A stretch of 42,500 nt of DNA from an uncultured Syntrophales bacterium (GTDB taxonomy: Bacteria; Desulfobacterota; Syntrophia; Syntrophales; JACQWR01): contig CAZTLA010000002.1 in the NCBI GenBank assembly GCA_964614365.1, positions 1-42,500 on the forward strand, in the 5' to 3' direction. Position 1 is the stretch's first letter. The number at the start of each line of letters is the position of its first letter. Shown piece by piece: positions 24,112 through 40,365 of this stretch. The notes beneath the pieces are model-generated. The model was given only the letters and a program-made list of their open reading frames with translations. It did not search any database and was not told the DNA's origin. A program made the translations under genes and the position numbers.

Positions 24112-24612
24112 GTGGGCAATACCCTAAACAACATGGATATGAAAAAATTCAAACATCCGGCTTTTCTGTTTAATGCTTTTGTCCTGGCGAGTTTCATAAT
24201 TCTCAACTGCATAGCGGCCGGTTATTCCGAAGGAGCTCGGCGGTTTCCCCAGTTCGTTTTGGGGATCGGGATAGCAGTCAGCGTATTCTGGATGGCAATC
24301 TATTTTGTTTTTCCCAAGGCCCTGCATTTTATCGAAACCCAGGAAGAGTATGAAGAGACCGATGCGGCAAACCCCACGCGATTCTACCTGGCGTGTGCGT
24401 GCGTGATCTTTTCCGTTCTCGTCGGATACCTCCTGGGTTTTCTCTTTCTTGTCCCGGCCGTTTTCCTGGGTTACGGCCTTATGCTCGGCGACAGAAGGAA
24501 TCTTGGCATATTAATTATCGTGGCCATCATCACAACCGCGCTTTTTTATCTCGGATTTGATTACCTGCTGAACATCCCGCTGCTGAAAGGCGCGATTTTG
24601 GATCTGAGTTAG
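24112..24612 (+). CDS. tctB: tripartite tricarboxylate transporter small membrane subunit TctB
   Basis: About 160-aa four-TM protein immediately upstream of tctA. The start may be Met 8 (24133). Confidence 0.75.
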   Translation: MGNTLNNMDMKKFKHPAFLFNAFVLASFIILNCIAAGYSEGARRFPQFVLGIGIAVSVFWMAIYFVFPKALHFIETQEEYEETDAANPTRFYLACACVIFSVLVGYLLGFLFLVPAVFLGYGLMLGDRRNLGILIIVAIITTALFYLGFDYLLNIPLLKGAILDLS

Positions 24613-24641
24613 TAACCCATAGCGAAGATGGAGAACGCAAG

Positions 24642-26141
24642 ATGGTAAATTGGGATATTGTGCTTCAAGGCATAGAATTGACTCTTACCGTGCAAAACAT
24701 ACTTCTTCTCGTCGCCGGGTTTTTTCTGGGAGTGATCGTGGGGATCCTGCCCGGAATCGGCCCTGCTGCGGGGATGGCGCTTATTCTTCCCTTCAGTTTC
24801 AACCTGCCTGCCGGTAGCGCTCTCATTTTGATGAGCGGCGTTTATCTGGCCTCAAATTATGGAGGCTCCATCGCGGCAATCCTGGTGAATACTCCGGGGG
24901 AATCGGCCAGCGCCGCCACGCTCCTGGACGGCTATCCCATGACCCAGAAGGGGCGCGCCGCTGAGGCGCTGGGGATATCGGCCGCCGCTGGCTCTCTGGG
25001 AGGCATGCTGGGTCTTATCGCCCTGATCTTTACCGCCCCGCTCCTTGCCCGCATGGCGTTGCGATTTGGCCCGCCGGAGAACGCCCTGCTTGCCCTTTTT
25101 GCGCTTTCCGTTATTTCAGCCATCGTGAAACGGAATCCCATCAAGGGACTGATCTCTGCCTGCATTGGGCTGGCCCTGGCAACCGTGGGAATGGACATGG
25201 TGAGCGGCGATTACCGCTTCGTCTTCGGCCTGGATGATCTTCAGGACGGCGTACCATTCATTCAGACGATGGTGGGGCTGTTTGCCGTTGCCCAGGTTAT
25301 TATCCTGGCGGAGTATAACCGGGCTATCAGCAAGGTTGATCTGGCGGGATCGGGGTTGCTTGCCGGCGTCAGGACGACGTTCAAGCATCCCCTGACGCTA
25401 ATGCGTTCGTTCATCATCGGCATCTGGATAGGGGCGCTTCCCGCCGCCGGCAGAAGTACGGCCTCTTTCATGGCCTATGCTGAGGAGGTGCGGTCTGCCA
25501 AGGATAAATCCCAGTTCGGCAAGGGGAATCCCGTAGGGGTGATCGCAAGCGAGATGGCCAACAATTCATGCGCCATGGGGGACCTGATTCCAACCCTCTC
25601 CCTGGGCATTCCCGGCAGTGTGGGGGCCGCCGTCTTCCTCGGCATCATGATCATTTTCGGCGTGATACCCGGATACAAGGTTTTTGTTGATCACGGCAGA
25701 GAAGTCTACAGCCTCTTTACGGCCTTCTTCATTGAAAACCTGCTCATTCTGATCCTTGGGCTGACCTACGCGAAATATCTGGCCAAGATCACCGTCGTCC
25801 GGAACGATGTCATCGTTCCCCTGATCCTGGTCTTTTCCCTGCTCGGGAGTTACTCCATCAGGAATTCCTATTTCGATCTGGGCCTGACCTCGATTTTCGG
25901 GATACTGGGATACTTCATGGCCAAATACGGATACTCCCCGGTGCCGCTCGTTCTGGCCCTGGTACTGGGCCCCATGCTGGAAAAGAATTTCCAGCGGGCG
26001 ATGATCATCAGCGAAGGGTCGTACACAATTTTCCTTCAGTCGGGAATAAGCATTGCGCTCGTGGCGATGACCGTATTCTCGCTGTGTTATCCATACCTTT
26101 CGGTTCTTTTGGAAAAATTGAAGAATAGAGATAGTGCCTGA
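24642..26141 (+). CDS. tctA: tripartite tricarboxylate transporter large permease TctA
   Basis: 499-aa polytopic protein with the TctA-family motifs G...GILPGIGP, YGGSI.AIL.N.PGE and LPG.G...A.F..Y. Confidence 0.9.
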   Translation: MVNWDIVLQGIELTLTVQNILLLVAGFFLGVIVGILPGIGPAAGMALILPFSFNLPAGSALILMSGVYLASNYGGSIAAILVNTPGESASAATLLDGYPMTQKGRAAEALGISAAAGSLGGMLGLIALIFTAPLLARMALRFGPPENALLALFALSVISAIVKRNPIKGLISACIGLALATVGMDMVSGDYRFVFGLDDLQDGVPFIQTMVGLFAVAQVIILAEYNRAISKVDLAGSGLLAGVRTTFKHPLTLMRSFIIGIWIGALPAAGRSTASFMAYAEEVRSAKDKSQFGKGNPVGVIASEMANNSCAMGDLIPTLSLGIPGSVGAAVFLGIMIIFGVIPGYKVFVDHGREVYSLFTAFFIENLLILILGLTYAKYLAKITVVRNDVIVPLILVFSLLGSYSIRNSYFDLGLTSIFGILGYFMAKYGYSPVPLVLALVLGPMLEKNFQRAMIISEGSYTIFLQSGISIALVAMTVFSLCYPYLSVLLEKLKNRDSA

Positions 26142-26221
26142 TAAACCTTAATAAAGAAGCTGTTAGCCTGAACTTAACCGGCGGGAGAAAGGATTCCGCC
26201 ACTCTTGAAGGAGGGTCTGTT

Positions 26222-27187
26222 ATGAAAAGAATCGTTGTGGCCGCGTGTGTTATCGTGCTGTGCTTATCGTTCTTTACTCTTTCGGCTTTTTCCGAAGATA
26301 AATTCCCCTCGAAGCCGATCACTATCAACGTGGGACAGGCTGCGGGTGGAGGCACGGACATCATTGCCCGCACCCTGGAGTCTTTTCTTTCAAAAGAACT
26401 CAAGGTTCCCGTCATTGTTCAAAATCAGACCGGGGCGGGCGGCGACATGGTTAATAATTTCATCTGGAAAGCCAAACCGGACGGATACAATCTCGTTATG
26501 ACCGTTCTCCCCTCTTTCACCAACCGGGAATTGATCAGAAAGCAGCCCTTCAAGATTTTGGAGATGAGTTTTATTTATGGGATTGCCGGTGGAGACTTTA
26601 ATGCGATCATGGTTCCCTTCAACTCGCCCATAAAGAACTTTCAGGATCTGAAAAAAGCATCCGCCGAGAAGGCGCTTTCCTGCGGCGGCGTTACGCCCGG
26701 CTCCAATTCCTGGTACGCCTCCATCCTGCTTCGCGAGGCAACGGGCATCAAGTTTAAATATGTTCCCTATGACAGCGGCACGGAGGCGGCAACCGCCGCG
26801 GGCGGCGGGCATGTGGACCTGGCCATTACCTCCATCATTTCCGCAAAGCAGCCGGTCCAGAACAAGCTGGTCCGTTTAATCGCCACCTTCGGCGGAACGC
26901 GCGATACGGACTTTCCGGATGTGCCCACGATGGTTGACCTGGGCCACAAGGAGATTCACTTCGCCACCCGTCAAGGGTTGGCTGGTCCTCCGGGGATGCC
27001 CAAGGATATCGTCAATAGTATTGCTAAAGCCGCAGCAAAGGCCGTTCAGGAGCCGAAATTCAAGGAAATCGCGGACAGGCAGGGGTTCACCGTTGATCCC
27101 ATGATGGGACCGGAATTCCACGAATGGGCCATGGGCATGAGCGCACAGGCCAGAAAATTCCTCACGAAGGCCGGGGAAATAAAGTAA
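26222..27187 (+). CDS. tctC: TctC/Bug-family periplasmic substrate-binding protein
   Basis: 321 aa with a signal peptide. It has the P.KPIT..V...AGGG.D..AR, N..GAGG and VPY.G...A..A..GGHVD patterns of the Bug/TctC family. Confidence 0.85.
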   Translation: MKRIVVAACVIVLCLSFFTLSAFSEDKFPSKPITINVGQAAGGGTDIIARTLESFLSKELKVPVIVQNQTGAGGDMVNNFIWKAKPDGYNLVMTVLPSFTNRELIRKQPFKILEMSFIYGIAGGDFNAIMVPFNSPIKNFQDLKKASAEKALSCGGVTPGSNSWYASILLREATGIKFKYVPYDSGTEAATAAGGGHVDLAITSIISAKQPVQNKLVRLIATFGGTRDTDFPDVPTMVDLGHKEIHFATRQGLAGPPGMPKDIVNSIAKAAAKAVQEPKFKEIADRQGFTVDPMMGPEFHEWAMGMSAQARKFLTKAGEIK

Positions 27188-27200
27188 AGGAACGTCATCC

Positions 27201-27881
27201 ATGGGGAAAAACCTTTCTCTTCCCTCTTTGAACAATGTGGGAACCCTACCCCACCGGGTGTATCTGCTCCTGGAAGATGCAATCCTCCGGGGCAAAATAA
27301 AACAGGGCGACCGCCTGATTGAGGATGATCTGTCGACTGTCATGGGCGTCAGCCGCGCCCCCATCAGGGAGGCCTTCCGGCTGATGGAAAAGGAGGGCCT
27401 CATCAAGATCATCCCCCGCAAGGGGGCGATCGTCAGTTCCGTCTCCCGGGAGGATGTGGCGGAAATCTACGAGGTATCCTCTGTCCTGGAAGGTCTTGCA
27501 GCGCGCCTCTTCTGCGAACGGGCTACGGAAACCGAGCTTAAGAAGATGAAGAAAATCTGCCGGGATATGGAAACGCAGATCGAAAAAAAGAACCTGCTCA
27601 AATACCGGAAGCTGAACCGGGATTTCCACGAAGTGTTTATCAACGGCTGCGCAAATAAGAAAATAAAAGAGGTCTATGGCTCGTTTCAGAAACAGATCCA
27701 CTGGTTTCAGAATGTTTCCCTGTCCTCCCAGGGGCGACCGGAGATTTCTTTGAAAGAGCACAAAAGCATTCTCGATGCCTTTTTGAAAAAGGACTGTGAC
27801 GCCGCGGAACATGCGGCACAAGATCACGTTCGGCGTGCTGCAAGCTATTTTCTTAGTAAAACAGACAACAGAGGAGACTGA
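27201..27881 (+). CDS. GntR-family transcriptional regulator with FCD (FadR-C-terminal-like) domain
   Basis: N-terminal winged HTH (L.E..L....GVSR.PIREA...L..EGL....PRKGA.V) plus an alpha-helical C-terminal domain of about 150 aa. Confidence 0.85.
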   Translation: MGKNLSLPSLNNVGTLPHRVYLLLEDAILRGKIKQGDRLIEDDLSTVMGVSRAPIREAFRLMEKEGLIKIIPRKGAIVSSVSREDVAEIYEVSSVLEGLAARLFCERATETELKKMKKICRDMETQIEKKNLLKYRKLNRDFHEVFINGCANKKIKEVYGSFQKQIHWFQNVSLSSQGRPEISLKEHKSILDAFLKKDCDAAEHAAQDHVRRAASYFLSKTDNRGD

Positions 27882-27883
27882 AC

Positions 27884-28555
27884 ATGGCGCAGGCAATCAG
27901 AACCATTGAGCGCGTTCCGGCGGAACTGGCAACCAGGTACAAGGATTTGAGTTCCGCAACGGTGCACGAGGCATCCGGAGCCAAGGGGGCGCTTTCATCG
28001 CGGATAAAGCCCATCTCCCCGGAAATGAAGGTGTGCGGGCCTGCCGTGACTGTGAAGGTAAGGCCGGGAGATAACCTGATCCTCCACAAGGCGATCTACG
28101 TCGCCCGGGCGGGCGATGTCATTGTGGCCGATGCGGACGGTTGTACCGAAGCCGGCCCCTGGGGTGAGATCATGGCTGTGGCCGCTATGGCGCGGGGCAT
28201 TGCCGGACTGGTGATCAATGGATCGGTGCGCGATTCCCAGGCCATGAGCGATCTGGGATTCCCCGTGTTTTCCTGTGCTCTCTGCATCAAGGGCACGGAG
28301 AAGCTTTCCCTGGGGCTCATCAACCATCCCCTGAATCTGGATAATGTCACGATTGCCCCCGGCGACCTGATCCTGGGCGATCGCGACGGTGTGGTGGTGG
28401 TGAGGCGGGAAGAAGCGGTTCAGGTGCTCGAAAAGTCCCTGGCCCGCGAGGAAAAAGAAAAAACGATTAAGGAACGATTGCGAGCAGGCGAATCCACACT
28501 TGATATTTACGGTTTCGGCGAGATTTTGAAGACGCGAGGCCTTACCGAAGAATAG
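27884..28555 (+). CDS. RraA-like / 4-hydroxy-4-methyl-2-oxoglutarate (HMG/CHA) aldolase-family protein, paralog 1
   Basis: 223 aa with the RraA-fold pattern (GD.I.......A.WGE......A...G..G.VI.GSVRD......GFPVF). The conserved R-D pair is present. Confidence 0.75.
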   Translation: MAQAIRTIERVPAELATRYKDLSSATVHEASGAKGALSSRIKPISPEMKVCGPAVTVKVRPGDNLILHKAIYVARAGDVIVADADGCTEAGPWGEIMAVAAMARGIAGLVINGSVRDSQAMSDLGFPVFSCALCIKGTEKLSLGLINHPLNLDNVTIAPGDLILGDRDGVVVVRREEAVQVLEKSLAREEKEKTIKERLRAGESTLDIYGFGEILKTRGLTEE

Positions 28556-28566
28556 GAAGAAACGTT

Positions 28567-29238
28567 ATGGAAGCGAAAGAATTTGACGCAACGTATCGCA
28601 AGCGCCTGGAAAAGCTCGCCACCACCAATATCGCGGACGCCATGGACAAGGTGGGGATCCGCGGGGCGGTGATCGGCATCAAGCCCCAGTACGACTGCCC
28701 GAAGATCACGGGCCGGGCGGTGACGATCAAGATAACTGCCGCCGGAGCGGTGGCCTCGAAATATCACCTGGGTGTGAGGGCCATCGATGCGGCAAGCTCC
28801 GGGGACGTGATCATCATCGACAACCGCGGCGACTTGAACAACAACTGCTGGGGAGAAATACTTTCCATGGGTTCCAAGATGAAGGGAATATCCGGCGTTG
28901 TCGTGGACGGTGCGGCGCGCGACATCGATGCCTGCAAGGAATTCGGTTTCCCCGTCTATGCGCGGGGCACGGTTCCCATCACGGCGCGGGGCAGGATCAT
29001 GGAGGAATCGTTCAACGAGGTGATCCGGGTAGGCGATGTGCAGGTAAGCCCAGGGGATATCGTCATGGCCGACATAAACGGCGTGGTGATCATTCCCGTA
29101 GCAAGGCTTGATGAGGTGCTTACGGCGGCGGAGGGCCTTATGGAGAAGGAACTGGCCATGGTGGAGGAACTCAGAAGAGGCGTCTCCATGTTGGAGGTGG
29201 ATCAGAAGTTTGCTTATGAGGCGATGTTAAAAAAGTAG
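28567..29238 (+). CDS. RraA-like / HMG-CHA aldolase-family protein, paralog 2
   Basis: 223 aa with the same fold pattern (GDVIIID......CWGEILS...K..GISGVVVDGAARD......FGFPVYARG). Confidence 0.75.
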   Translation: MEAKEFDATYRKRLEKLATTNIADAMDKVGIRGAVIGIKPQYDCPKITGRAVTIKITAAGAVASKYHLGVRAIDAASSGDVIIIDNRGDLNNNCWGEILSMGSKMKGISGVVVDGAARDIDACKEFGFPVYARGTVPITARGRIMEESFNEVIRVGDVQVSPGDIVMADINGVVIIPVARLDEVLTAAEGLMEKELAMVEELRRGVSMLEVDQKFAYEAMLKK

Positions 29239-29249
29239 GGAGACATGCG

Positions 29250-29903
29250 ATGGGGACAAAAGAGATCATAGAGAAATTCAAAGGTATGGACACCACCTGC
29301 CTCTCCGACGCCATGGATCGGCTGGGCATCAAGTGCGGTTGCGCGGGGATACTACCTGTGGTTGCCGGCGTAAAGGCCGTGGGAGAGGCATTCACGGTGA
29401 AATACCGACCCTGTGGCACGGTCAAGGGAACGGTGGGCGATTTCCTGGACGATGTGGTCCCCGGACAGGTGGTGGTCCTCGATAACGGTGGCCGGACCTA
29501 CGGCACCGTCTGGGGCGACATCATGACGGTCTACGCGCAGAAACGGGGTGTTGCCGGCACGGTGATCGATGGGGTCTGCCGCGATCTGCCGCGCATTCTT
29601 GACGTCAGATACCCGATTTTCACGAGGGGAAGGTTCATGGTTACGGGGAAAGACAGAGTTGAACTGGATGGGCTGAACGTTCCCGTTGCCATAAGCGACG
29701 TCCCGGTGAGGCCCGGCGACATAATGGTTTGCGACGATACGGGAGTTGTGGTTGTCCCTGCCGACAGGGCCGGCGAGGTGCTGGAGGCGGCCTGCGAGAT
29801 CGACGAGGTGGAGCAGCGGATACTGGCACTCCTGGGTGAGGGGATGACCATGCGTGAGGCGCGGGCGAAGCTGGGGTATCACAAACTGCAAACGAAGAAA
29901 TAA
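29250..29903 (+). CDS. RraA-like / HMG-CHA aldolase-family protein, paralog 3
   Basis: 217 aa with the same fold pattern (GQVVVLDN......VWGDIM....Q.RGVAGTVIDGVCRD......YPIFTRG). Confidence 0.75.
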   Translation: MGTKEIIEKFKGMDTTCLSDAMDRLGIKCGCAGILPVVAGVKAVGEAFTVKYRPCGTVKGTVGDFLDDVVPGQVVVLDNGGRTYGTVWGDIMTVYAQKRGVAGTVIDGVCRDLPRILDVRYPIFTRGRFMVTGKDRVELDGLNVPVAISDVPVRPGDIMVCDDTGVVVVPADRAGEVLEAACEIDEVEQRILALLGEGMTMREARAKLGYHKLQTKK

Positions 29904-29921
29904 TTTTAACAAGGAGAACCG

Positions 29922-31289
29922 ATGGAACCGACAAAAGTGTTAGCTCGATTCTGCGAAAAAACGACCTTTGAAGATCTGCCCAAAGACGTGGTGAAAATCG
30001 CCAAGCAAACCATTCTGGACACGCTCGGTTGCGCCGTGGGGACCCACTCGGATGAGCCGGAGAAACCCCAGGTCATCAACAAGGTCGCAAAAAGTTTAGG
30101 AACGACCGCGCAAGAGGCCACCGTTATTTGCGGGAACATGAAGGTTTCTTCTCCCTTTGCCGCTCTCGCCAACGGGGTCATCTGCCACGGCATTGATTTT
30201 GACGACACCCACGGCGAGGCCCTTACCCATACCAGTTCCGTGATCGTTCCGGCGGCTCTGGCCACGGCGGAAGAAGCCGGGCAAAGCGGCAAGGACCTGA
30301 TCACCAGTTTTGTTCTCGGCTTTGAGACAGCGGTCCGGGTAGGCATGGCGGTCATGCCTACCCACTACGACTACTGGCACTCTACGGCAACGAACGGCAC
30401 GTTCGGCGCAGCGGCGGCGGCGGGGAAGAACTACGCGTTTACCGCGGAGCAATACGTAAACGCCTTCGGCTTCAGCGGCACGCAGGCGGCAGGGCTTTTG
30501 ACCTACCTGAAATTCGGCGATTATACCAAGAGCTTCAATCCCGGCAAGTCGGCCTTCAACGGCATCCTGTCCGCCCTGATGGTGAAGGCCGGAGGCACGG
30601 CGCCCCCGAATATGATCGAGAACCCCAAGGGCTATACGGGGGCTTACTCCAAGGAACCAAATCTGCAGAAGCTTACCCGCGGCCTTGACGGCGGCCCCAT
30701 GGTCTGGGAAATCCTGAACAATATGCTGAAGCCCTTCCCATCGCTTGCCGCCAGCCATCCGCCCATGGATGTCATCTTGCGGCTGGTGAATGAGAACGAC
30801 CTGAAGCCGGAAAACATCGTCAAGATCTTCAACAAGACCTACAACACGGTCGTGAGCCATTTCTCCAATTACGACCCGATCAACGTCATGGCCGCCCGCC
30901 TGAGCGTTCCCTACTGCATGGCCGTCTGCGCCGCCAAGAGGGACGGGGGATTGAACGCCTTCCATATGGAGACGGTCAAGGATCCGGTGGTGCAGGACAT
31001 GCTGAAAAAGGTCGAGATCGTGGCTGATCCGGAACTGCATAAACTCTATCCGGAAAAGTTTCCCACCAACATCGAGATCACCACGAAGGACGGCAAAGTG
31101 TATAAGGGAGAAATGTACTATGCCAAGGGAAGCGCCAAGAATCCTTTCAGCAATGAGGAGATCAATGAGAAGTTCAGGGGTCTCGCGCTGCCGATGATGG
31201 ACAAGAAGAAGGTGGACACCATCGTGCAGATGGCGGAGAACCTGGAAGACGTGAAAAACGTAGCCGAATTCGGCCGGCTCTTTGCGTAA
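29922..31289 (+). CDS. MmgE/PrpD-family protein (2-methylcitrate-dehydratase superfamily)
   Basis: 455 aa. The N-terminus (F....L...V....K...LD.LGCA.G) and overall length fit MmgE/PrpD. The specific reaction is unknown. Confidence 0.8.
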   Translation: MEPTKVLARFCEKTTFEDLPKDVVKIAKQTILDTLGCAVGTHSDEPEKPQVINKVAKSLGTTAQEATVICGNMKVSSPFAALANGVICHGIDFDDTHGEALTHTSSVIVPAALATAEEAGQSGKDLITSFVLGFETAVRVGMAVMPTHYDYWHSTATNGTFGAAAAAGKNYAFTAEQYVNAFGFSGTQAAGLLTYLKFGDYTKSFNPGKSAFNGILSALMVKAGGTAPPNMIENPKGYTGAYSKEPNLQKLTRGLDGGPMVWEILNNMLKPFPSLAASHPPMDVILRLVNENDLKPENIVKIFNKTYNTVVSHFSNYDPINVMAARLSVPYCMAVCAAKRDGGLNAFHMETVKDPVVQDMLKKVEIVADPELHKLYPEKFPTNIEITTKDGKVYKGEMYYAKGSAKNPFSNEEINEKFRGLALPMMDKKKVDTIVQMAENLEDVKNVAEFGRLFA

Positions 31290-31324
31290 GGTATAGTGTA
31301 CTCGAAAAAAAAGAGGAGGCTACA

Positions 31325-32641: not shown

Positions 32642-32656
32642 TAACAAGGCGGCAAC

Positions 32657-32705
32657 GAGGAGGCGACACAGGCGTACTCGAATAGTACGTCGAGGAGCTA
32701 ACGAT
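32657..32705 (-). repeat. fragment related to the internal part of the 33786-33911 MITE-like element, in the opposite orientation
   Basis: GAGGAGGCGACACAGGCGTACTCGAATAGTACGTCGAGGAGC resembles the reverse complement of 33827-33870 (hand alignment, several indels). Confidence 0.45.
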
Positions 32706-32756
32706 GCAGACAACACAGTTAGCGTTTGAAGGTGACTTCGTATAAAGGGAAGAAAA

Positions 32757-33785
32757 ATGAAAACATTCCAAATCGCACTGATCCCTGGAGACGGCGTCGG
32801 GACGGAAGTGGTGGGAGCTGCCAGGGAGGTCCTCGAAGCGCTGGCGAAGAAGGGCGGAGATTTCACGCCTGCGTTCACCGAATACCCGGCGGGTAAAACC
32901 GCTTACGAGAAGACCGGGGACAGTCTCCCCGCCGACACGCTCAAGGGTATTGGCGCTTCCGATGCAACGCTCATGGGCGCCATGGCCACGGGACTTGTTC
33001 CCCCGCCCAGCCCCATGGGAAAGCTGCGCCGGGAGATGGACCTCTACGCCGAGATCCGGCCCATCCAGTCCTATCCCGGCGTGTGGTGCCTCAGGGACAA
33101 TCTCGACATCATAATCGTCCGGGAGACGACGCAGGGGTTTCTGGCGGACAGAAACCTGTACAAGGGTAACGGAGAATTCATGCCGGACAAGGATACGGTC
33201 CTTTCCCTCAGGGTGCTCACGAGATATGCCTGCGAGAGGATCGCCCGCTTCGCCTGCGACTACGCTATGCGGCTCTCCCGGAAAAAAATCACCGTTGCCC
33301 ACAAGGCGAACGTCCTCAGGCTGGGGGATAACTTTTTTCTCGATATCTGCCGGGAGACGGCGAAAGACTATCCCAACCTCGCGATGAACGACGAATACAT
33401 AGACACCGTCGCCAACAAACTGATCAGTCATCCTGAAGACTACGACGTCATTCTTACGACAAACATGTATGGGGACGTCGTTTCCGACGAAGCGGCGGCA
33501 CTGGTGAGTTCCCTGGTTCCCACCGCCAATTTCGGGAAAAGCTGCGCAATCTTCCGCCCGATACACGAGTCGCTGATCGAGATTGCAGGCAAGAACATCG
33601 TCAATCCCATTCCCACGATTCTTTGCGGCGTGATGCTGCTGGATTACCTGGGTGCCGGCAAAGCGGCTGCCCGCCTCAGAAAGGCGGTGGGCGCGGTACT
33701 GGCGGAGGGCAGGGTAAAAACGGCGGACCTGGGTGGGAAGTCTTCCACGAGCGATGTGACGGCGGCCATAATAGCGGCCCTGTAA
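32757..33785 (+). CDS. isocitrate/3-isopropylmalate/homoisocitrate/tartrate dehydrogenase-family beta-decarboxylating dehydrogenase
   Basis: 342 aa with I..IPGDG.G.EV, RE.TEG-like VRETTQG, and NMYGDV.SDEAA motifs. Confidence 0.85.
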   Translation: MKTFQIALIPGDGVGTEVVGAAREVLEALAKKGGDFTPAFTEYPAGKTAYEKTGDSLPADTLKGIGASDATLMGAMATGLVPPPSPMGKLRREMDLYAEIRPIQSYPGVWCLRDNLDIIIVRETTQGFLADRNLYKGNGEFMPDKDTVLSLRVLTRYACERIARFACDYAMRLSRKKITVAHKANVLRLGDNFFLDICRETAKDYPNLAMNDEYIDTVANKLISHPEDYDVILTTNMYGDVVSDEAAALVSSLVPTANFGKSCAIFRPIHESLIEIAGKNIVNPIPTILCGVMLLDYLGAGKAAARLRKAVGAVLAEGRVKTADLGGKSSTSDVTAAIIAAL

Positions 33786-33911
33786 CAGGCTGCTGAAAAA
33801 TGCCCATCTGCGGCGTTTCCCTCGTCCTTCGTTGCTGCGACGTACGACTATTGTACGCCTCGCTCCTCAGAACTTCGGGGGCCTTGCATATGAACATTTT
33901 TGAGCAGCCTG
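33786..33911. mobile_element. 126-bp MITE-like insert with 17-bp terminal inverted repeats (CAGGCTGCTGAAAAATG / CATTTTTGAGCAGCCTG)
   Basis: It starts directly after the TAA of the dehydrogenase gene and has 16/17 complementary termini. A solo TAACAGGCTGCTGAA also follows the leuC-like stop at 35218-35233. Confidence 0.6.
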
Positions 33912-33951
33912 TAAAAACGACTATTTCAGCAACTTAATAAAGGAGAATGCC

Positions 33952-35220
33952 ATGGGCATGAACATAACGGAAAAAATACTTGCGCGGGCATCGGGGAAAA
34001 AGTCCTGCGCCCCCGGCGACATTGTGGAGGCGTCGATCGACGTGGCCATGCTCCATGACATCGGCACGCCGGGCATCCAGCGTCCCCTGAAGGAACTGGG
34101 AGTAGAAAAGTTGCCCCCCTCCGTGGAAGTGGTGATCATCCCAGACCACTTCGTTCCCGCGCCCACGGCGCAGGCGGCGGATAATCTGAAGCTTACCCGT
34201 GAATTTGCCCGCAAGCACCATATCGAGAATTACTACGAGATAGGTCGGGGCGGTATCTGCCATCAGGTCATGGCCGAAAAGGGGCATATCAGGCCGGGCG
34301 ACGTGATTATCGCTCCCGATTCCCACACGACCACGTACGGCGCTTTCGGGGCCTTCGCGGTCGGCCTCGGAGTTACCGACATGGCCATCGGACTGGGATT
34401 GGGGAAGCTGTGGTTCAAGGTTCCCCCCACCGTGAAAATCGTGCTCACGGGAAAACTGCGCCCCGCCACATCGGCGAAGGATATTTCTTTGTTCCTGCTC
34501 CGCGAGCTGGGTACGGAGGCCCTCTCCTATAAGGCGATAGAACTGGCAGGCAACGTCATCGAGGAGATGAGCATTGACGGCCGCATGTGCATCTGCGACA
34601 TCGCCGCGGAGATGGGGACGAAGAACTGCGTCATTGCGACCGATAAAACCACCATGGATTACCTGAAGACGCGCACGGATAAACCCCTGTCGCCGATTAT
34701 GAGCGATCCCGATGCGCGCTGCGAGGAAGTGAGGGAATTCGACGTTTCCACCCTCGAACCCCTGGTTGCCTCCCCCCACGTTCCCACCAATGTGCAGTCG
34801 GTGAGGGAAGCGGCCGGCGCAAAAATAGATCAGGCATTTCTCGGCTCCTGCACCAACGGCAGGATGGAAGACCTGCGGATCGCTGCCGGGATATTCAAAA
34901 AAGCCAATGCAAAGGTTCATCCCGACGTCCGCCTCATCATCACGCCCGCCTCCCAGGAGATTTATCTTGACGCCCTGAAGGAAGGGCTCTGGGAGATGTT
35001 CATCAAGGCGGGGGCCCTGGTCACCAACCCCTCCTGCGGCGCCTGTTTCGGAGGTCACATGGGCCTGCTGGGCGCGGGAGAAACGTGCATATCAACTTCC
35101 AACAGGAATTTTATCGGCAGGATGGGGAGCCCCAAGGCGGGAATCTATCTTGCCTCTCCCGCGACGGTTGCGGCATCGGCAATAGAGGGCAGGATCACGG
35201 ACCCGACGGGGAAAATATAA
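33952..35220 (+). CDS. aconitase-family dehydratase large subunit (LeuC/HacA type, about 420 aa)
   Basis: T..EKIL..., D....HD.T, PDSHT...GA.GAFA.G.G and GSCTNGR motifs are present, along with the C.AC cluster-ligand region (NPSCGACFGGHMG). Confidence 0.85.
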   Translation: MGMNITEKILARASGKKSCAPGDIVEASIDVAMLHDIGTPGIQRPLKELGVEKLPPSVEVVIIPDHFVPAPTAQAADNLKLTREFARKHHIENYYEIGRGGICHQVMAEKGHIRPGDVIIAPDSHTTTYGAFGAFAVGLGVTDMAIGLGLGKLWFKVPPTVKIVLTGKLRPATSAKDISLFLLRELGTEALSYKAIELAGNVIEEMSIDGRMCICDIAAEMGTKNCVIATDKTTMDYLKTRTDKPLSPIMSDPDARCEEVREFDVSTLEPLVASPHVPTNVQSVREAAGAKIDQAFLGSCTNGRMEDLRIAAGIFKKANAKVHPDVRLIITPASQEIYLDALKEGLWEMFIKAGALVTNPSCGACFGGHMGLLGAGETCISTSNRNFIGRMGSPKAGIYLASPATVAASAIEGRITDPTGKI

Positions 35221-35256
35221 CAGGCTGCTGAAGAAGTTATTTAAAGGGGATGTCAG

Positions 35257-35751
35257 ATGAACATGAGAGGAAAAGTATGGAAGTACGGAGACGACATCGA
35301 TACGGACGTCATCTATCCGGGCAAATATCTGGTTTCTTTTGATCCCGCGGAGGCCGCGAAGCACGCCATGGAGGGACTGGAACTGGATTTTCATAAGAAG
35401 ATAACGAAGGGAGATATCCTGGTCGTCGGAAGAAACTTCGGCAGCGGCTCCGCCCGCGAACAGGCTGCGGTGGCGCTGAGATCGGCGGGGATAAGCGCCG
35501 TGATCGCCGAATCCTTCGCCCGTTCCTTTTACCGCAATGCCATCAACGTCTGCCTGCCGGTGGTGGAACTCAAGGGCATCCACAGCTCAACGGATGAAGG
35601 CGACGAGGTGGAAATAGACATGGAGGAGGGGCTGATCCGGAATTTAACTCAAAAAAACGAATATCGTTTCCCCCCGCTTCCTCTTTTTCTCATGGAAATA
35701 TTGAAAATCGGCGGCGCCGTTGCCTACTACCGGCAGAAAGCGCAGCGGTGA
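35257..35751 (+). CDS. aconitase-family dehydratase small subunit (LeuD/HacB type)
   Basis: 164 aa with G.V.K.GD.IDTD.I.P..YL, GRNFG.GSSRE.A..AL...G...VIA.SFARIFYRNAIN-like motifs. Confidence 0.85.
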   Translation: MNMRGKVWKYGDDIDTDVIYPGKYLVSFDPAEAAKHAMEGLELDFHKKITKGDILVVGRNFGSGSAREQAAVALRSAGISAVIAESFARSFYRNAINVCLPVVELKGIHSSTDEGDEVEIDMEEGLIRNLTQKNEYRFPPLPLFLMEILKIGGAVAYYRQKAQR

Positions 35752-35810
35752 CGGAGCAGGAAAATAGTCGTTGCGGGGAGTGCCTCGCAAGCCGCGCCTT
35801 CAAAGGCGGG

Positions 35811-35840
35811 GAACCTGATTCCTCTCTGGAGGAATCAGGT
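35811..35840. other. perfect 13-bp stem / 4-nt loop hairpin between the leuD-like gene and the second tctC
   Basis: AACCTGATTCCTC-TCTG-GAGGAATCAGGTT, with no following T-tract. Confidence 0.6.
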
Positions 35841-35868
35841 TATGAATAACGAAATCAGGAGGTAGCTT

Positions 35869-36882
35869 ATGAAAAAATGCACCCTATTGCCTTTGATCGG
35901 GTTGTTTGTTCTGTCACTGTCATTGTATCCCTTTCGTCTCTTTGCGGCTGCGGCCCCCTTCTACGAAGGCAAGGTAATCAACATAGTTGTCGGTTATAAC
36001 CCCGGCGGAGGCTACGATCGCGTGGCCCGTCTGCTTGCCAAACATCTCTCCAAACACATCCCGGGGAAACCGGCCGTTATCGTTCAAAACATGCCCGGCG
36101 CCAGCAGCATGATCGCCACCAATCATGTGTATAATATTGCCAAGCCGAACGGTCTTACGATCGGCGCTATAGACCGGGGACTCGCTTTTGCCCAGTTGCT
36201 GAAGGCGGAGGGCGGCAAGTTTGATCTGAGAAAATTTGCCTGGATAGGGTCGGCGGCGGTAGAGAGCACGGTATTGATTGTGCGAAGCGAACTGCCGTAC
36301 AAGACCGTTGATGATCTTGCCAAGGCGAAATCGCCGGTCATGATCGGTAACTTGGGCCTTGCCAATAACAGCACCCATTTCCTTGTTTTCCAGAAGGAAT
36401 TTCTCGGTTACAATTATAAATTCATATCCTATCCTGCCGCCGCCGATGCCATGCTGGCTCTCGAAAGAAAAGAGATAGACGGCATGGGGGTCGCTTACAG
36501 CACGGCCAAACTGTTAATAGACAGAGGCACGGCGCGCCCCTTGATTCGAGGGCGCGTATCCGAGGCCGGAATTGAAAATTTGCCTGTGGACGAAGACCTT
36601 GCCAGGGACAGCAAGGCAAAAACGCTTATGGCCATGCGTTCCGCGCCCGACCGGATGGGACGGCCCTACGTGCTTCCCCCGGGAACGCCGGAGGCGGTGA
36701 TGAGCATATTACGAAACGCCTTTGCCAAGGTCATGAAAGACCCGGCCCTGCAGGAAGATGCCAAAAACAATAAAATGACACTGGAATACGTGCCTGACCG
36801 GGAAGTGCAAAAATTGCTGGAGTATATTCTCAACCAGCCGCCGGAGATGGTAAACGAATTTGCCAAATATATAAAACTTTAA
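35869..36882 (+). CDS. second TctC/Bug-family periplasmic substrate-binding protein
   Basis: 337 aa with a signal peptide and the same family architecture as 26222-27187, but clearly divergent in sequence. Confidence 0.75.
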   Translation: MKKCTLLPLIGLFVLSLSLYPFRLFAAAAPFYEGKVINIVVGYNPGGGYDRVARLLAKHLSKHIPGKPAVIVQNMPGASSMIATNHVYNIAKPNGLTIGAIDRGLAFAQLLKAEGGKFDLRKFAWIGSAAVESTVLIVRSELPYKTVDDLAKAKSPVMIGNLGLANNSTHFLVFQKEFLGYNYKFISYPAAADAMLALERKEIDGMGVAYSTAKLLIDRGTARPLIRGRVSEAGIENLPVDEDLARDSKAKTLMAMRSAPDRMGRPYVLPPGTPEAVMSILRNAFAKVMKDPALQEDAKNNKMTLEYVPDREVQKLLEYILNQPPEMVNEFAKYIKL

Positions 36883-36920
36883 GGGAGAGCTTCAACAGAC
36901 ATCATGGCAAAATCTCCCCT

Positions 36921-36970
36921 CCCTCTCTTTGCCAAAGAGGGACATGATTCCTCCCTTTGGAAAAGGGAGG
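36921..36970 (+). repeat. double-hairpin repeat (CCCTCTCTTTGCCAAAGAGGG ... CCTCCCTTTGGAAAAGGGAGG), left member of an inverted pair
   Basis: Its reverse complement aligns with 38536-38583 with about 6 mismatches by hand. It lies between tctC2 and the SDH-alpha-like gene. Confidence 0.7.
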
Positions 36971-36985
36971 GGGGGGAGGGATTTT

Positions 36986-38524
36986 ATGGATCACTACCGT
37001 CGTTATTATGAGCCTACTAAGGATCTGCTGTATAAAACCGAGTTCAACAGGTGGACAACACCCGGTGAGGACGAGACCATGAAAAAAGACGGTTATTTTG
37101 AAATTTTGATCGAAGGGATCAGGAAGGCGGCCCCGAAGGGGAAGAAGCTTACCCTGGGAGAGATCATAGCCCTGGCCCAACGGCTGGATGTCAGGGTAAG
37201 CGACATCGTGATCGCGGAAGCGATGGATGCGCATGCCCTTAGTTGCGATAAGGTGATTGAGGCCGTTCTCGGCGCCTTCAGTTCCAACCTGCTCGCGCTG
37301 GAGATCGGCCTTACGAAGGGCAACAGCTTTCTTTTGGGAACGATCGGTAGCGAACTGGCCGCGATACGGAAGAAGAAACCTGCCCTCATTGGAGATAGCT
37401 TCATAGATAAGGCCATGGTTTACACCCTCGCCACGGAAGTGGGAAACCACGAAGTGGGCTTGCAGCCCTGCGCGGGGACGGGCGATTCCTGCGTGTACAC
37501 GGGGCTTATGAAGGCGCTTAAGGAAACGAGGATTTCCCGGCGGAAGCTGGGGCAGATTGCCGCTCTGATCGTCAAGGTCGGCCTCTTCTTCAAGGAAGGG
37601 AAGAAAACCACCGGCTGCAACATGGAGGGTTTCGGTGCGGGTGCAGCCTGCACCGCCGCCGCCCTCACGGAGCTTCGGGGCGGCTCGCCCGAGCAGGTGG
37701 CGAAGGCCATCGTGCTTGCCATCTCCCCCACGGTTGCCGTACCCTGCACGCCGCGGGTCATCGTCTCCGGCCTCTGCGCCACCCACATCGGCGGGGCGAT
37801 ACTCATCGGGAACCTCGCCGCGAACCTCGCCCTCAAGACCTCCATCTCTGTCGCTATTGATGTGGACGTCATGCTTGCCATGACCGCCAAGATTCATGCG
37901 ACGGCGGCGCCCGTTATCACGGGCATCAATCTCGAGTACATGCGCCCCTATTTTAAAACGGAACCGGTCATTGACGGGTTCGTTTCCGGAGTAGTCTGCG
38001 ATGAAGAAAAGGAAAGCTCCGCGCGAATCGTTTCCCGCGCCCGCGAGGAGGTGCGGGCGTTTGCCGAGAGCGCCAATCCCCTCATCAGTCCTTTCGGGGA
38101 AGCGGTGGTGGGAGGAAGCAGTATCGCCGTCGGTTCTCCCACGAACATGGGGCGCGTCGCCCACGAACTGATAGCGGGCAAGATCAAGAAGATCACCATT
38201 GAACTAACCACCGACCTTTTTGCCCGGCGGGCCATCAACGTGCCCGGCATCCTGATGGGAGCGGTCCTCGGCGCATCCACCAAAGACATCAAGGCCTACC
38301 ACGGCATCCTCAAGGAAGTCGCCCGGCAGGGAATCATCGTCAAAATCAAACAGGTAAACGAACCGGAAGTCCAGCGGATAACCATCGAAGCCGCCGGCAA
38401 AAGCGCCTTTGTCGACGCCCTGAACCGGGGCGGGGGACGGTTGAAACTGGTAGATGCCCGTCCCTCTCTGGCGGAAGCCAAAAATGCTGCCGAACGACTG
38501 GGCATCAAGCTTGCCGAGGTTTAA
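36986..38524 (+). CDS. serine-dehydratase-alpha-like (SDH_alpha / UPF0597-type Fe-S hydro-lyase family) protein with extra N- and C-terminal regions
   Basis: VYTLATEVGNHEVGLQPCAGTGDS and GC.MEGFGAGAA.TAAAL.EL.GG.PEQ...A..LA......VPC.P......LC parallel the SdaAA patterns (E.NA..G.IV.APTAGS; GCQ.E.G.A..MAA.......G). The start is set at ATG 36986, because the longer track ORF begins inside the repeat. Confidence 0.55.
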   Translation: MDHYRRYYEPTKDLLYKTEFNRWTTPGEDETMKKDGYFEILIEGIRKAAPKGKKLTLGEIIALAQRLDVRVSDIVIAEAMDAHALSCDKVIEAVLGAFSSNLLALEIGLTKGNSFLLGTIGSELAAIRKKKPALIGDSFIDKAMVYTLATEVGNHEVGLQPCAGTGDSCVYTGLMKALKETRISRRKLGQIAALIVKVGLFFKEGKKTTGCNMEGFGAGAACTAAALTELRGGSPEQVAKAIVLAISPTVAVPCTPRVIVSGLCATHIGGAILIGNLAANLALKTSISVAIDVDVMLAMTAKIHATAAPVITGINLEYMRPYFKTEPVIDGFVSGVVCDEEKESSARIVSRAREEVRAFAESANPLISPFGEAVVGGSSIAVGSPTNMGRVAHELIAGKIKKITIELTTDLFARRAINVPGILMGAVLGASTKDIKAYHGILKEVARQGIIVKIKQVNEPEVQRITIEAAGKSAFVDALNRGGGRLKLVDARPSLAEAKNAAERLGIKLAEV

Positions 38525-38535
38525 GATTAAACATT

Positions 38536-40359: not shown

Positions 40360-40365
40360 GCTGTT

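Follow-up and report, generated by a model that had tools for sequence, protein, structure and literature searches.

What does a run of fourteen genes that joins a carboxylate uptake system to enzymes of several families accomplish in an uncultured Syntrophales bacterium? The genes occupy positions 24112-38524 of a 42,500-nucleotide stretch (contig CAZTLA010000002.1 of assembly GCA_964614365.1, positions 1 to 42,500, hereafter the window), and an earlier note on this DNA had taken them for the genes of a candidate catabolic pathway for an organic acid, linked to a transporter and a regulator and matching no named route. The combination of a tripartite tricarboxylate transporter (TTT), a GntR-type regulator with an FCD domain and the accompanying enzyme set supports this assignment, and the full-text literature that we searched held no description of the gene combination. 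We read the region, with a probability of roughly 0.55, as a single GntR/FadR-controlled catabolic operon that would import an anionic di- or tricarboxylate and convert it to pyruvate (together with CO2 and a small second product) without resort to coenzyme A (CoA) thioesters.

All 14 open reading frames (ORFs) lie on the plus strand, separated by gaps of 2-196 nt, as expected from the earlier description of the genes as co-oriented and tightly spaced, and Pfam and NCBIfam profile searches confirmed every protein family named there. The component families are all known. In the literature searched we found no description of their combination, of the conserved trio of RraA-like proteins, of the clade of flavoenzymes resembling dihydroorotate dehydrogenase (DHOD), or of the alternation between AcnX and a hydro-lyase resembling the alpha chain of L-serine dehydratase (SDH-alpha). 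Overall, we consider the cluster a well-supported and experimentally tractable lead rather than a demonstrated new pathway.

Conservation of the core across phyla

Related loci were gathered by a genome scan for the DHOD-like gene, by inspection of the contexts of RraA2 and SDH-alpha-like homologues, and by a metagenome scan with a DHOD alignment (which added 79 loci); the metagenome loci were annotated by BLASTP against a panel of already typed proteins. Fifteen loci of at least 6 kb with an orthologous DHOD-like gene were defined as clade A, and 34 loci with only distant DHOD paralogues served as a control. RraA1 and RraA3 were each present in 13 of the 15 clade-A loci, RraA2 in 11, LeuC/D and TctC in 10, TctA in 9, a protein related to isopropylmalate dehydrogenase (IPMDH) in 8, UbiD in 7, AcnX in 6, and the SDH-alpha-like and PrpD proteins in 5 each, and every one of these was missing from the control (0/34); the GntR regulator was found in 8/15 clade-A and 2/34 control loci. 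One of the two alternative hydro-lyases, SDH-alpha-like or AcnX, was encoded in 11/15 clade-A loci, and no locus contained both. The gene arrangement exceeds chance.

The closest relative, one of three loci returned by the genome scan, is a groundwater deltaproteobacterial metagenome-assembled genome (MAG; L001) with 91% identity in the DHOD-like protein and the order tctBAC-gntR-rraA1-2-3-DHOD-IPMDH. The genes that come after IPMDH there encode a biotin-less carboxyltransferase (HMGL+PYC_OADA), a PrpD paralogue of another kind (28% identity) and an SDH-alpha-like protein, and the locus is devoid of LeuCD, of TctC2 and of the PrpD of the window. The other two loci, from Bacillota MAGs (L002 and L003; 44% identity in the DHOD-like protein), run through gntR, tctA, tctC1, DHOD, IPMDH, DmpF, DmpG, LeuC and LeuD to RraA1, RraA2, the large and small subunits of AcnX, and RraA3, with a nitrilase-family hydrolase added in L002. 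The locus nearest to the window in gene order is L010 (tctBAC, two extra genes, gntR, RraA1-3, PrpD, UbiD, DHOD, IPMDH, LeuC, LeuD); the 2,5-dihydroxypyridine dioxygenase NicX, which a precomputed annotation assigns to this locus, did not reappear in Pfam or NCBIfam scans and was not used. In Treponema primitia the cluster is complete, comprising GntR, AcnX, three RraA, DHOD, Iso_dh, LeuC, LeuD, UbiD, two TctC, TctB and TctA, with UbiX upstream, and a contig with an Intestinimonas butyriciproducens-type protein has a similar gene set together with UbiX and an LpdD-type subunit. Two arrangements, DHOD-IPMDH-LeuC-LeuD-UbiD and the block AcnX-RraA-RraA-RraA, are seen repeatedly in L020-L025, L102 and L103. 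A second type of cluster (L015, L016) consists of GntR, a more distant (clade-B) DHOD-like protein with 31% identity, a TfrA/NadB-like flavoprotein, an SDH-alpha-like protein and the RraA trio, sometimes with UbiD, and with a TAXI-TRAP or TTT transporter. The RraA trio stands alone in L004 and with PrpD in L011.

The core is therefore conserved over Deltaproteobacteria/Thermodesulfobacteriota, Bacillota, Treponema primitia and the Intestinimonas-type contig. It consists of the RraA trio, the DHOD-like enzyme and one Fe-S hydro-lyase (SDH-alpha-like or AcnX), usually with LeuCD, the IPMDH-like protein, the TTT system and GntR; the accessory genes, which can stand in for one another, are those for PrpD, UbiD, the flavoprotein, DmpFG and the hydrolases, and the cluster is modular. 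The gene-neighbourhood comparison that the earlier note had proposed as a check thus upholds the core as a unit, but the exact set and order of the 14 genes was seen nowhere else, and even L001 differs.

Two of the related loci show peculiarities of their own. At 1898-3969 of L102, the Intestinimonas-type contig, the LeuC-like gene encodes just 170 aa, and the 455-aa gene before it, which has no Pfam match, runs on the opposite strand, so this hydro-lyase large subunit may have been disrupted by an insertion. The first 7,200 nt (1-7200) of L008/L009 contain five MmgE/PrpD-family genes in a run (one of them split into N- and C-terminal parts), an unusual concentration, which diverges from a unit of an old yellow enzyme (OYE)-type reductase with RraA2 and RraA3 and is accompanied by a PEP-mutase/isocitrate-lyase-family gene and an MR/MLE enolase-superfamily gene.

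Enzymes, transporter and control of the cluster

The cluster holds three RraA-like copies (a number that the earlier note had not given): rraA1 (27884-28555), rraA2 (28567-29238) and rraA3 (29250-29903). The first encodes a LigK-like class II pyruvate aldolase / oxaloacetate decarboxylase, the only one of the three paralogues to reach a curated 4-carboxy-4-hydroxy-2-oxoadipate aldolase / oxaloacetate decarboxylase cut-off (NF006731, 216 bits with a cut-off of 179), while it scores below the cut-off of TIGR02798 (190 vs 304 bits). In an alignment with 3NOJ (156 bits), an aldolase for 4-hydroxy-4-methyl-2-oxoglutarate and 4-carboxy-4-hydroxy-2-oxoadipate (HMG/CHA), it retains Arg123-Asp124 and has Glu in place of Asp102. 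By fold, by this residue pair and by its NF006731 score RraA1 belongs with the HMG/CHA aldolases LigK/GalC/ProA. RraA2 and RraA3 match the family profile PF03737 (125 and 124 bits) and reach only 97 and 90 bits on NF006731, retaining the Arg-Asp motif nonetheless; we file them at the level of the RraA fold rather than as LigK-type aldolases. Among solved structures RraA3 also matches the uncharacterised 3K4I (187 bits), again with the Arg-Asp motif kept. The alignments to 3NOJ show Arg123-Asp124 and an acidic residue at position 102 in all three proteins, which accordingly look catalytically competent. The earlier assignment of the group as a whole to HMG/CHA-type aldolases thus holds for RraA1 and fails for RraA2 and RraA3, which miss the cut-offs and form separate orthogroups. 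Identification with the RNase E regulator RraA was rejected on size (217-223 aa vs ~160) and on the scores of the equivalog models (46-74 bits vs a cut-off of 136).

Each of the three paralogues of the window is 45-64% identical to one gene of the Bacillota and clade-B clusters and only ~28-37% identical to the other two, and RraA2, which has more than 1100 homologues, has 1:1 orthologues in Bacillota, clade-B clusters and Proteobacteria. Judged by these relationships, the trio is apparently an old unit of three orthogroups. Megaplasmids of Ralstonia, Burkholderia and Rhizobium carry an operon with the same three, in the company of a LysR regulator, an aminotransferase dependent on pyridoxal phosphate (PLP), an alpha/beta hydrolase and sometimes a Glu/Leu/Phe/Val dehydrogenase; 5-oxoprolinase subunits occur nearby in the Burkholderia and Bosea loci, and an amidase also in Bosea. 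As the trio accompanies a PLP aminotransferase or an amino-acid dehydrogenase, it would act on a 2-oxo acid in these aerobic Proteobacteria. RraA3 orthologues (54-57% identity) adjoin an RraA2-like gene in Ralstonia, Burkholderia, Rhizobium and Diaphorobacter, and the pair occurs without RraA1 in Diaphorobacter, in L008 (beside the OYE-type enoate reductase), in L013 and in L019 (beside a DHOD-like gene). A reductase stands directly beside RraA2-RraA3 in five loci, DHOD-like in L019, L034, L045 and L047 and OYE-type in L008. The tight pairing of the two genes suggests that their products may form a heteromer.

The DHOD-like gene (31325-32641; PF01180, Fer4) encodes a PreA-like FMN enzyme with a C-terminal 2x[4Fe-4S] ferredoxin domain, which aligns to residues 531-845 and 910-999 of pig dihydropyrimidine dehydrogenase (DPD), i.e. 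to its FMN and C-terminal Fe-S domains. The equivalents of Cys671 (the general acid) and Asn668 are kept ('ELNFCCP'), as are all eight cluster cysteines in two CxxCxxCxxxC motifs, which are invariant; Asn609 is replaced by His, and in the clade-B proteins the equivalent of Asn736 is Arg. With 186 bits on the PreA model (cut-off 335), the enzyme falls outside PreA proper and probably works like DHOD or DPD. Neither the cluster nor the window encodes a PreT-like NAD(P)H subunit. Pyrimidine catabolism of the PreTA type was dismissed, as there is no PreT, dihydropyrimidinase or ureidopropionase and the substrate-binding Asn residues are altered. A search of a plasmid collection with the DHOD-like query returned only PreA proteins with less than 30% identity. 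As a separate matter, 7 of the 34 control loci (L055, L062, L067, L077, L078, L081, L082) have aldehyde:ferredoxin oxidoreductase genes beside their distant DHOD-like Fe-S paralogue (26-31% identity), a conserved pairing of its own that has nothing to do with the RraA clusters.

Next in the cluster are a member of the beta-decarboxylating dehydrogenases of the IPMDH and homoisocitrate dehydrogenase (HICDH) family (32757-33785; PF00180, Iso_dh, 269 bits), which represents a distinct subfamily, and the two subunits of an aconitase-family hydro-lyase (Pfam Aconitase and Aconitase_C), LeuC/HacA-like (33952-35220) and LeuD/DmdB-like (35257-35751). The best solved structure for the IPMDH-like protein is HICDH of T. 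thermophilus (231 bits), and it is below the cut-off of every equivalog (e.g. leuB, 204 bits vs 353; AksF2, 329 vs 540), which leaves it outside both LeuB and HICDH. The Lys of 'HKANV' and the Asp metal ligands of 'GDxxSD' are retained. The canonical 'EGLY' is replaced by 'QGFLADRNLYKGNGEF', and an 8-residue insertion, 'QGFLADRNLYKGNGEFMP', stands in place of the '...EGLY...' motif, which contributes the catalytic Tyr. The resulting signature, RE(T/N)TxGFLADRNLYKGxGEFMP, is kept in 8 loci of different lineages, always beside the DHOD-like gene. LeuC and LeuD pass the subfamily models NF001614 (561 bits) and TIGR02087 (201 bits) and remain below the corresponding equivalogs (LEU2, 492 vs 611 bits; leuD, 200 vs 246); the cysteines that ligate the Fe-S cluster of LeuC ('GSCTNG' and 'SCGAC') are present. 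The LeuD specificity loop reads YLVS in the window and YLVH or YLVY in relatives, with no Arg. Work attributed to Drevland (2007) and Jeyakanthan (2010) reportedly associates such Arg-less loops with the isopropylmalate/citramalate type, and Arg-containing loops with the aconitase/homoaconitase type.

A housekeeping NADP-dependent isocitrate dehydrogenase (ICDH; 634 bits vs 335) is encoded elsewhere in the window (13228-14493, minus strand, beside RlmN and an NlpC/P60-LysM hydrolase), so the IPMDH-like gene of the cluster is not the ICDH of the cell. Together with the subthreshold leuB, leuC and leuD equivalogs and the cluster-specific IPMDH signature, this bears out the view that LeuCD and IPMDH are more than plain leuBCD. 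A mere adjacency of leuBCD or ICDH genes was discarded on the same grounds, i.e. the low equivalog scores, the insertion in the signature and the separate NADP-ICDH.

Two further enzymes flank this set. The MmgE/PrpD-family protein (29922-31289; PF03972, PF19305) has both domains of the family (N, 218 bits; C, 126 bits); its sole NCBIfam match is the PrpD equivalog, at 65 bits against a cut-off of 950, and its nearest structures, all within 100-135 bits, are the iminodisuccinate (IDS) epimerase 2HP3 (135 bits) and cis-aconitate decarboxylases. We can place it at the level of the family only, as a likely dehydratase, decarboxylase or isomerase of polycarboxylates. The last gene (37079-38524) encodes an SDH-alpha-like hydro-lyase of the Fe-S L-serine dehydratase superfamily, for which the Pfam match is weak (PF03313, SDH_alpha, 34 bits) and the assignment is backed by fold and by a Cys motif. 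Cys131, Cys138, Cys180 and Cys223 are invariant, Cys233 nearly so, and the spacing C180-x42-C223-x9-C233 resembles that of Fe-S L-serine dehydratases (C-x41-C-x10-C type). An AlphaFold (AF2) model (pLDDT 77, pTM 0.74) matched in Foldseek the Legionella L-serine dehydratase 4RQO (rmsd 4.2 A over 279 columns) and the cysteine desulfidase CyuA; matches of the model to PrpD-family structures, with rmsd of 12-16 A, were disregarded. The C-terminal domain matches the ASB/ACT-like domain of phosphoglycerate dehydrogenase (PGDH), the counterpart of the serine dehydratase beta domain, so that fold, Cys motif and beta/ACT-like domain all place the protein in the SdaA/CyuA/Hmd superfamily. The order of domains is alpha then beta, the reverse of the order in 4RQO (beta then alpha). 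This enzyme, which the earlier note named in its title only, is a core partner that is swapped with AcnX in other lineages.

The start of this last gene deserves a comment. The longest ORF begins with a TTG at 36929, and Met51 (37079) is the likelier start, because the homologues (475-481 aa) cover ~90% of the longest ORF and because a terminator-like hairpin between tctC2 and the last gene (36948-36977, plus strand, from a consensus scan) falls inside its 5' extension.

The transporter genes are, as previously described, a TctBAC set at the start of the cluster and a second TctC: tctB, the small membrane subunit (24112-24612; PF07331, 39 bits); tctA, the large membrane subunit (24642-26141; PF01970, 444 bits); tctC1, a periplasmic solute-binding protein (26222-27187; PF03401, 131 bits); and tctC2, a divergent second one (35869-36882; PF03401, 66 bits). 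All of them exceed the gathering thresholds, and with TctA, TctB and TctC encoded together the system is a TTT transporter. The solved structures nearest to TctC1 are 2DVZ (105 bits) and BugD, 2F5X (94 bits), which presumably bind glutamate and aspartate, respectively. Two adjacent TctC genes are found in the cluster of Treponema primitia as well. Elsewhere in related clusters, DASS, TAXI-TRAP, MFS and NMT1-ABC transporters occur, and a nucleobase-type permease is located inside the L024 cluster.

The regulator gene, gntR (27201-27881), encodes a winged helix-turn-helix (HTH) domain (PF00392) and an FCD domain (PF07729), and a GT-N-AC-type palindrome in the promoter region completes its assignment to the GntR/FadR subfamily. 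This perfect palindrome, ATTGTATACAAT (24025-24036, found by sequence inspection), is the likely operator of the regulator and lies 76 bases upstream of tctB, just 3' of a promoter-like site (TTGAAC-17-AATAAT with a TG extension, 23951-23979, plus strand). The latter, from a consensus scan, is a pattern match only, such sites being no more frequent in the region than in shuffled sequence. Both elements would belong to the cluster unit. The TTGTATACAA core recurs upstream of tctB in L001 and L010, at a position equivalent to that in the window; in L023 it separates GntR from AcnX, and in L053 it precedes the DHOD-like gene. The five cluster sites (including that of the window) account for 5 of the 10 TNGTATACNA matches in the 1.24 Mb of fetched sequence. 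Operators of the FadR type commonly take the GT-N-AC form; ATTGTATACAAT is of the form expected for this subfamily, and supports a predicted control of the unit by the regulator that it encodes. DipR, a dipicolinate-responsive GntR/FadR repressor of Alcaligenes, likewise binds the GTATAC core (PMC11472048). The resemblance between the predicted operator and the DipR motif is weak evidence, and we give it little weight because this core may be common among FadR-type regulators. A search of the plasmid collection with the GntR query produced unrelated contexts only, and an Rfam scan of the whole window matched no RNA element.

The candidate route and its rivals

The reaction types of the families involved are well established. 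DHOD and DPD act on a -CH(COOH)-CH2-C(=O)- unit; enzymes of the aconitase, serine dehydratase and AcnX types add or remove water beside a carboxylate; IPMDH-type enzymes convert 3-substituted malates to 2-oxo acids and CO2; UbiD and PrpD proteins of the cis-aconitate decarboxylase type decarboxylate (hetero)aromatic or alpha,beta-unsaturated acids; and LigK-type RraA enzymes release pyruvate from 4-hydroxy-2-oxo acids and also decarboxylate oxaloacetate. The adjacencies conserved among the loci are [DHOD-IPMDH-LeuC-LeuD-UbiD], [AcnX or SDH-alpha-like-RraA x3] and [reductase-RraA2-RraA3]. Given this chemistry and these adjacencies, the most economical scheme would comprise formation of a 2-oxo-dicarboxylate, desaturation (or ring reduction), decarboxylation, hydration and retro-aldol cleavage.

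First, the LeuCD-like enzyme would hydrate or isomerise a substituted cis-enedioate or malate, which the IPMDH-like enzyme would oxidatively decarboxylate to a 2-oxo-dicarboxylate. The DHOD-like enzyme, with a ferredoxin-type electron carrier, might then add or remove a C=C bond in a -CH(COOH)-CH2-C(=O)- unit, as in dihydroorotate, interconverting a saturated 2-oxo acid (or reduced ring) and a 2-oxo-3-enoate of the oxalomesaconate/oxalocrotonate type. The PrpD-like protein (in most relatives, the HmfF-like UbiD) would decarboxylate or rearrange the enoate, and the SDH-alpha-like Fe-S hydro-lyase (AcnX in relatives) could hydrate the product to a 4-hydroxy-2-oxo acid. Finally, RraA1 and the probable RraA2/RraA3 heteromer would cleave 4-hydroxy-2-oxo acids, or decarboxylate oxaloacetate, to give pyruvate. 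No CoA ligase or transferase is encoded in any version of the cluster examined, and the sole CoA-dependent enzyme is DmpF, which occurs with DmpG in the two Bacillota loci; these two enzymes themselves form the last part of the meta-cleavage lower pathway.

Several points weigh against this proposal. The comparison shows that the enzymes are present, intact and conserved together; the order of the steps and the direction of the redox step come from family chemistry and gene adjacency alone and could be different. The chemistry of the IPMDH-like protein may depart from oxidative decarboxylation, since the canonical position of the catalytic Tyr is lost, and the first step would seem dispensable or replaceable, as the nearest relative, L001, lacks LeuCD. 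The decarboxylation step leans on an analogy with cis-aconitate decarboxylase, given that the window has no UbiD and that the PrpD-like protein is limited to 5/15 loci. Three active-looking RraA paralogues are more than the scheme strictly requires, and the window encodes no ring-opening hydrolase.

As to the substrate, the most likely class is that of polycarboxylates with a heteroaromatic, hydroxy-aromatic or cyclic skeleton, or the products of their ring opening. The cluster-type UbiD of the relatives is closest (251 bits) to PtHmfF, a 2,5-furandicarboxylate decarboxylase, of which entry 6H6V is the structure (PMC8988006). UbiX and an LpdD-type subunit accompany this UbiD in relatives (in the Intestinimonas-type contig), and the three proteins together hint at a heteroaromatic or hydroxy-aromatic dicarboxylate. 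Isochorismatase-type, nitrilase-type and M20 hydrolases are occasional accessories in related clusters and, along with the nucleobase-type permease, offer a similar hint of a cyclic, heteroaromatic or hydroxy-aromatic acid. The cluster in the window itself encodes neither UbiD nor any hydrolase. Of the two substrates suggested earlier, a ring-cleavage-type intermediate thus provides the better fit, whereas a branched tricarboxylate is disfavored by the LeuD loop without Arg. The same loop, being of the isopropylmalate/citramalate type, makes the isomerisation of a tricarboxylate by LeuCD doubtful.

A possible though rather unlikely alternative, in line with the earlier proposal, is that the operon degrades a branched, acyclic acid with two or three carboxyl groups (of the alkylsuccinate, tricarballylate, aconitate, citramalate or methylcitrate type). 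The DHOD-like enzyme would here act as a succinate-type dehydrogenase (R-succinate to R-fumarate/R-maleate), followed by hydration by LeuCD and formation of R-CH2-CO-COOH by the IPMDH-like enzyme, with the PrpD-like, SDH-alpha-like and RraA enzymes trimming the remainder. This logic parallels the sequence TcuA, aconitase, ICDH known from general biochemistry, and it is consistent with the TTT transport and with the conserved adjacent order DHOD-IPMDH-LeuC-LeuD. Moreover, a TfrA/fumarate-reductase-like flavoprotein accompanies the DHOD-like gene in clade-B clusters, and SDH-alpha-like homologues in the TctC-rich locus L017 sit with tricarboxylate enzymes (PrpF, two PrpD, a FAD_binding_2 flavoprotein and an AcnA-like aconitase). 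On the other hand, the Arg-less LeuD loop is not tricarboxylate-like, most relatives carry the HmfF-type (hetero)aromatic-acid decarboxylase with UbiX and LpdD, the L024 cluster includes a nucleobase-type permease and some relatives include amidase-type hydrolases, and the scheme leaves three pyruvate aldolases without a role.

A nitrogen-bearing polycarboxylate, i.e. an amino or beta-hydroxy-amino dicarboxylate or a reduced N-heterocycle from peptidoglycan or nucleotides, appears to be a quite improbable substrate. The SDH-alpha-like protein (or AcnX) would then be a deaminating dehydratase that makes the 2-oxo acid for the RraA trio, and known members of these two hydro-lyase families do include L-serine dehydratase, cysteine desulfidase and cis-3-hydroxy-L-proline dehydratase; the serine-dehydratase family also has a nitrogen-free substrate, however, 2-(hydroxymethyl)glutarate in E. 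barkeri. The proteobacterial RraA trio is linked to an aminotransferase, Glu/Leu/Phe/Val dehydrogenase, 5-oxoprolinase, amidase and asparagine permease, but the window encodes no amidase or aminotransferase. Related clusters hold an M20 ArgE/DapE-type deacylase, nitrilase- and isochorismatase-family hydrolases, SBP_bac_5 proteins and Ldh_2, though such accessories are in the minority (isochorismatase-like in 3/15 and nitrilase-like in 1/15 loci). TctC1 is nearest to 2DVZ and BugD, presumably binders of glutamate and aspartate, while the 'NicX' label in L010 could not be reproduced.

A more specific form of the cyclic-substrate reading, speculative and of correspondingly low probability, is that the cluster family serves the anaerobic, CoA-independent catabolism of an abundant heteroaromatic alpha-dicarboxylate, with dipicolinate as the prime candidate and furan- or pyrone-dicarboxylates as alternatives. 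Dipicolinate is abundant and is released from endospores. The DHOD-like protein might in such a case be a new dearomatising ring reductase that acts on a -N/O-C(COOH)=C- unit as DHOD does on orotate, and RraA1 with RraA2/RraA3 a new, possibly heteromeric aldolase system that frees pyruvate from the opened ring. Hints in this direction are the HmfF-type UbiD, UbiX and LpdD in the versions from cultured organisms, dicarboxylate-type and nucleobase-type transporters, the GTATAC core in common with DipR (a weak one), and the occurrence of the clusters in anaerobes of sediment or groundwater, gut and termite gut. The literature that we searched held no description of genes for anaerobic dipicolinate degradation.

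Last, a chance grouping of leuBCD-type biosynthetic genes and unrelated RraA, PrpD and DHOD genes beside a TTT transporter is very hard to credit: that LeuC and LeuD pass the subfamily-level LeuC/HacA and LeuD models of NCBIfam and that L001 has no LeuCD in its cluster speak for it, and the leuB, leuC and leuD equivalogs all below cut-off, the cluster-specific IPMDH-like signature, the strong and specific co-localisation of the core over several phyla, the shared predicted operator and the tight intergenic gaps speak against it.

If the proposed operon for a di- or tricarboxylate is real, it would represent a widespread route by which strict anaerobes convert a polycarboxylic acid, one that is probably cyclic or heteroaromatic, to pyruvate with neither oxygen nor CoA activation, spanning Deltaproteobacteria/Thermodesulfobacteriota, Bacillota and Spirochaetota, including the Intestinimonas-type gut contig and Treponema primitia. 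It would also provide functions for three large groups of mis-annotated proteins, namely RraA-like proteins ('RNase E regulator', 'demethylmenaquinone methyltransferase'), a PreA-like group labelled 'dihydroorotate dehydrogenase' and a group labelled 'L-serine dehydratase alpha', and the conserved RraA trio would make a marker for genome mining. As orthologous clusters exist in cultured species, the question of the substrate is directly testable.

Neighbouring genes and relation to known systems

Upstream of the cluster, a membrane complex resembling complex I and group-4 hydrogenases is encoded at 16596-23837 (NuoB-like, HyfB-like, NuoH-like and fused NuoC/D, HycE-like, subunits). Its large subunit reads 'RISGDSSYSH' and 'DPSFLNW' where the NiFe-binding CxxC motifs are expected, so that the complex looks Ehr-type rather than hydrogenase. 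A link with the cluster was rejected, the adjacency being conserved neither in L001 nor in any other locus. The antiporter-like subunits at 17152-19202 and 20807-22248 are each split into a short N-terminal ORF and the remainder (129 + 554 aa and 196 + 279 aa), and the HyfB profile match of the 554-aa ORF begins at profile position 126; occurring twice, the split is probably natural and not a frameshift.

The first part of the window (1-9340) has a G+C content of 39-42%, vs 52-58% elsewhere, and contains glycan-synthesis genes (an HpcH/HpaI-type aldolase, a KdsB-like cytidylyltransferase, a DegT-type aminotransferase, a GT2 glycosyltransferase and a sugar transferase). It also encodes a B12-binding radical SAM enzyme, whose nearest family is one of P-methyltransferases (306 bits, short of the cut-off), and has two large ORFs, of 584 and 508 aa, for which Pfam gave no match; this part may be a surface-polysaccharide island that was acquired horizontally. 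Across the cluster and the genes upstream of it the G+C content is 52-58%, and it falls to ~47% directly past 38.5 kb, which may point to the border of an island or to a junction in the assembly. The remainder (38525-42500) has small ORFs only, among them a 126-aa ORF of no family on the minus strand, a DUF2971 protein and a YggL-like protein.

Comparison with characterised systems sets the cluster apart from each of them while it draws on parts of several. The LeuBCD and AksDEF systems belong to the same families as the LeuCD- and IPMDH-like proteins, with the LeuC Fe-S ligands and the Lys and Asp metal ligands of the dehydrogenase kept. Unlike them, the proteins of the window are below the equivalog cut-offs, with the 8-residue insertion and the loss of the Tyr position; the cluster has no (homo)citrate or isopropylmalate synthase, and the pair is always beside the DHOD-like gene. 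With PreT/PreA and class 1 dihydroorotate dehydrogenases, the flavoenzyme shares the FMN barrel, the active-site Cys and one substrate Asn, and with PreA also the C-terminal 2x[4Fe-4S] domain. It differs from PreT/PreA in its score (186 vs 335 bits), in the missing PreT partner, in the change of Asn609 to His and in its non-pyrimidine context.

Canonical clusters for protocatechuate (PCA) 4,5-cleavage, gallate or nicotinate were rejected on the absence of their defining enzymes, and riboflavin degradation, considered on the basis of a preprint, proved unrelated. The lower pathway of PCA 4,5-cleavage and gallate catabolism (LigJ/GalB, LigK/GalC) is approached by the LigK-type RraA1 with its catalytic Arg-Asp pair, and by the proposed end chemistry, in which a 2-oxo-3-enoate would be converted through a 4-hydroxy-2-oxo acid to pyruvate and oxaloacetate independently of O2 and CoA. 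Neither the window nor the related loci examined contain genes of PCA 4,5-cleavage or gallate catabolism (ligI, ligJ/galB, ring dioxygenase); the cluster has no LigI/LigJ amidohydrolases, GalD/PrpF tautomerase or ring dioxygenase, and hydration would fall to Fe-S or PrpD-type hydro-lyases instead. In turn, that pathway has no counterpart to the RraA2 and RraA3 orthogroups, the DHOD-like reductase or the LeuCD/IPMDH-like enzymes. The meta-cleavage lower pathway (4-oxalocrotonate decarboxylase, 2-oxopent-4-enoate hydratase, DmpG, DmpF) would share the succession of decarboxylation, hydration and pyruvate-forming aldol cleavage, and DmpF and DmpG are actually present in two Bacillota versions of the cluster. 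In the window these steps would be carried out by unrelated families (PrpD/UbiD, SDH-alpha-like/AcnX, RraA), with no extradiol dioxygenase or hydrolase. We infer that in function the cluster may amount to a lower pathway of the meta-cleavage or PCA-4,5 type, put together from non-orthologous, oxygen-sensitive enzymes.

A further parallel is the nicotinate fermentation of Eubacterium barkeri, which Alhapel et al. are said to have described in 2006 as CoA-independent, proceeding through an Fe-S flavoprotein ring reductase, a [4Fe-4S] serine-dehydratase-like dehydratase and DmdAB and ending in pyruvate; DmdAB, a LeuCD-type hydratase, reportedly acts on an alkyl-substituted maleate. The window contains no nicotinate dehydrogenase (a molybdo-hydroxylase), enamidase, B12-dependent 2-methyleneglutarate mutase or isocitrate-lyase-type dimethylmalate lyase. 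The cluster differs further in that C-C cleavage would be entrusted to RraA-type aldolases and an IPMDH-like step added, but with that fermentation it would share the overall CoA-independent anaerobic design and the types of enzymes.

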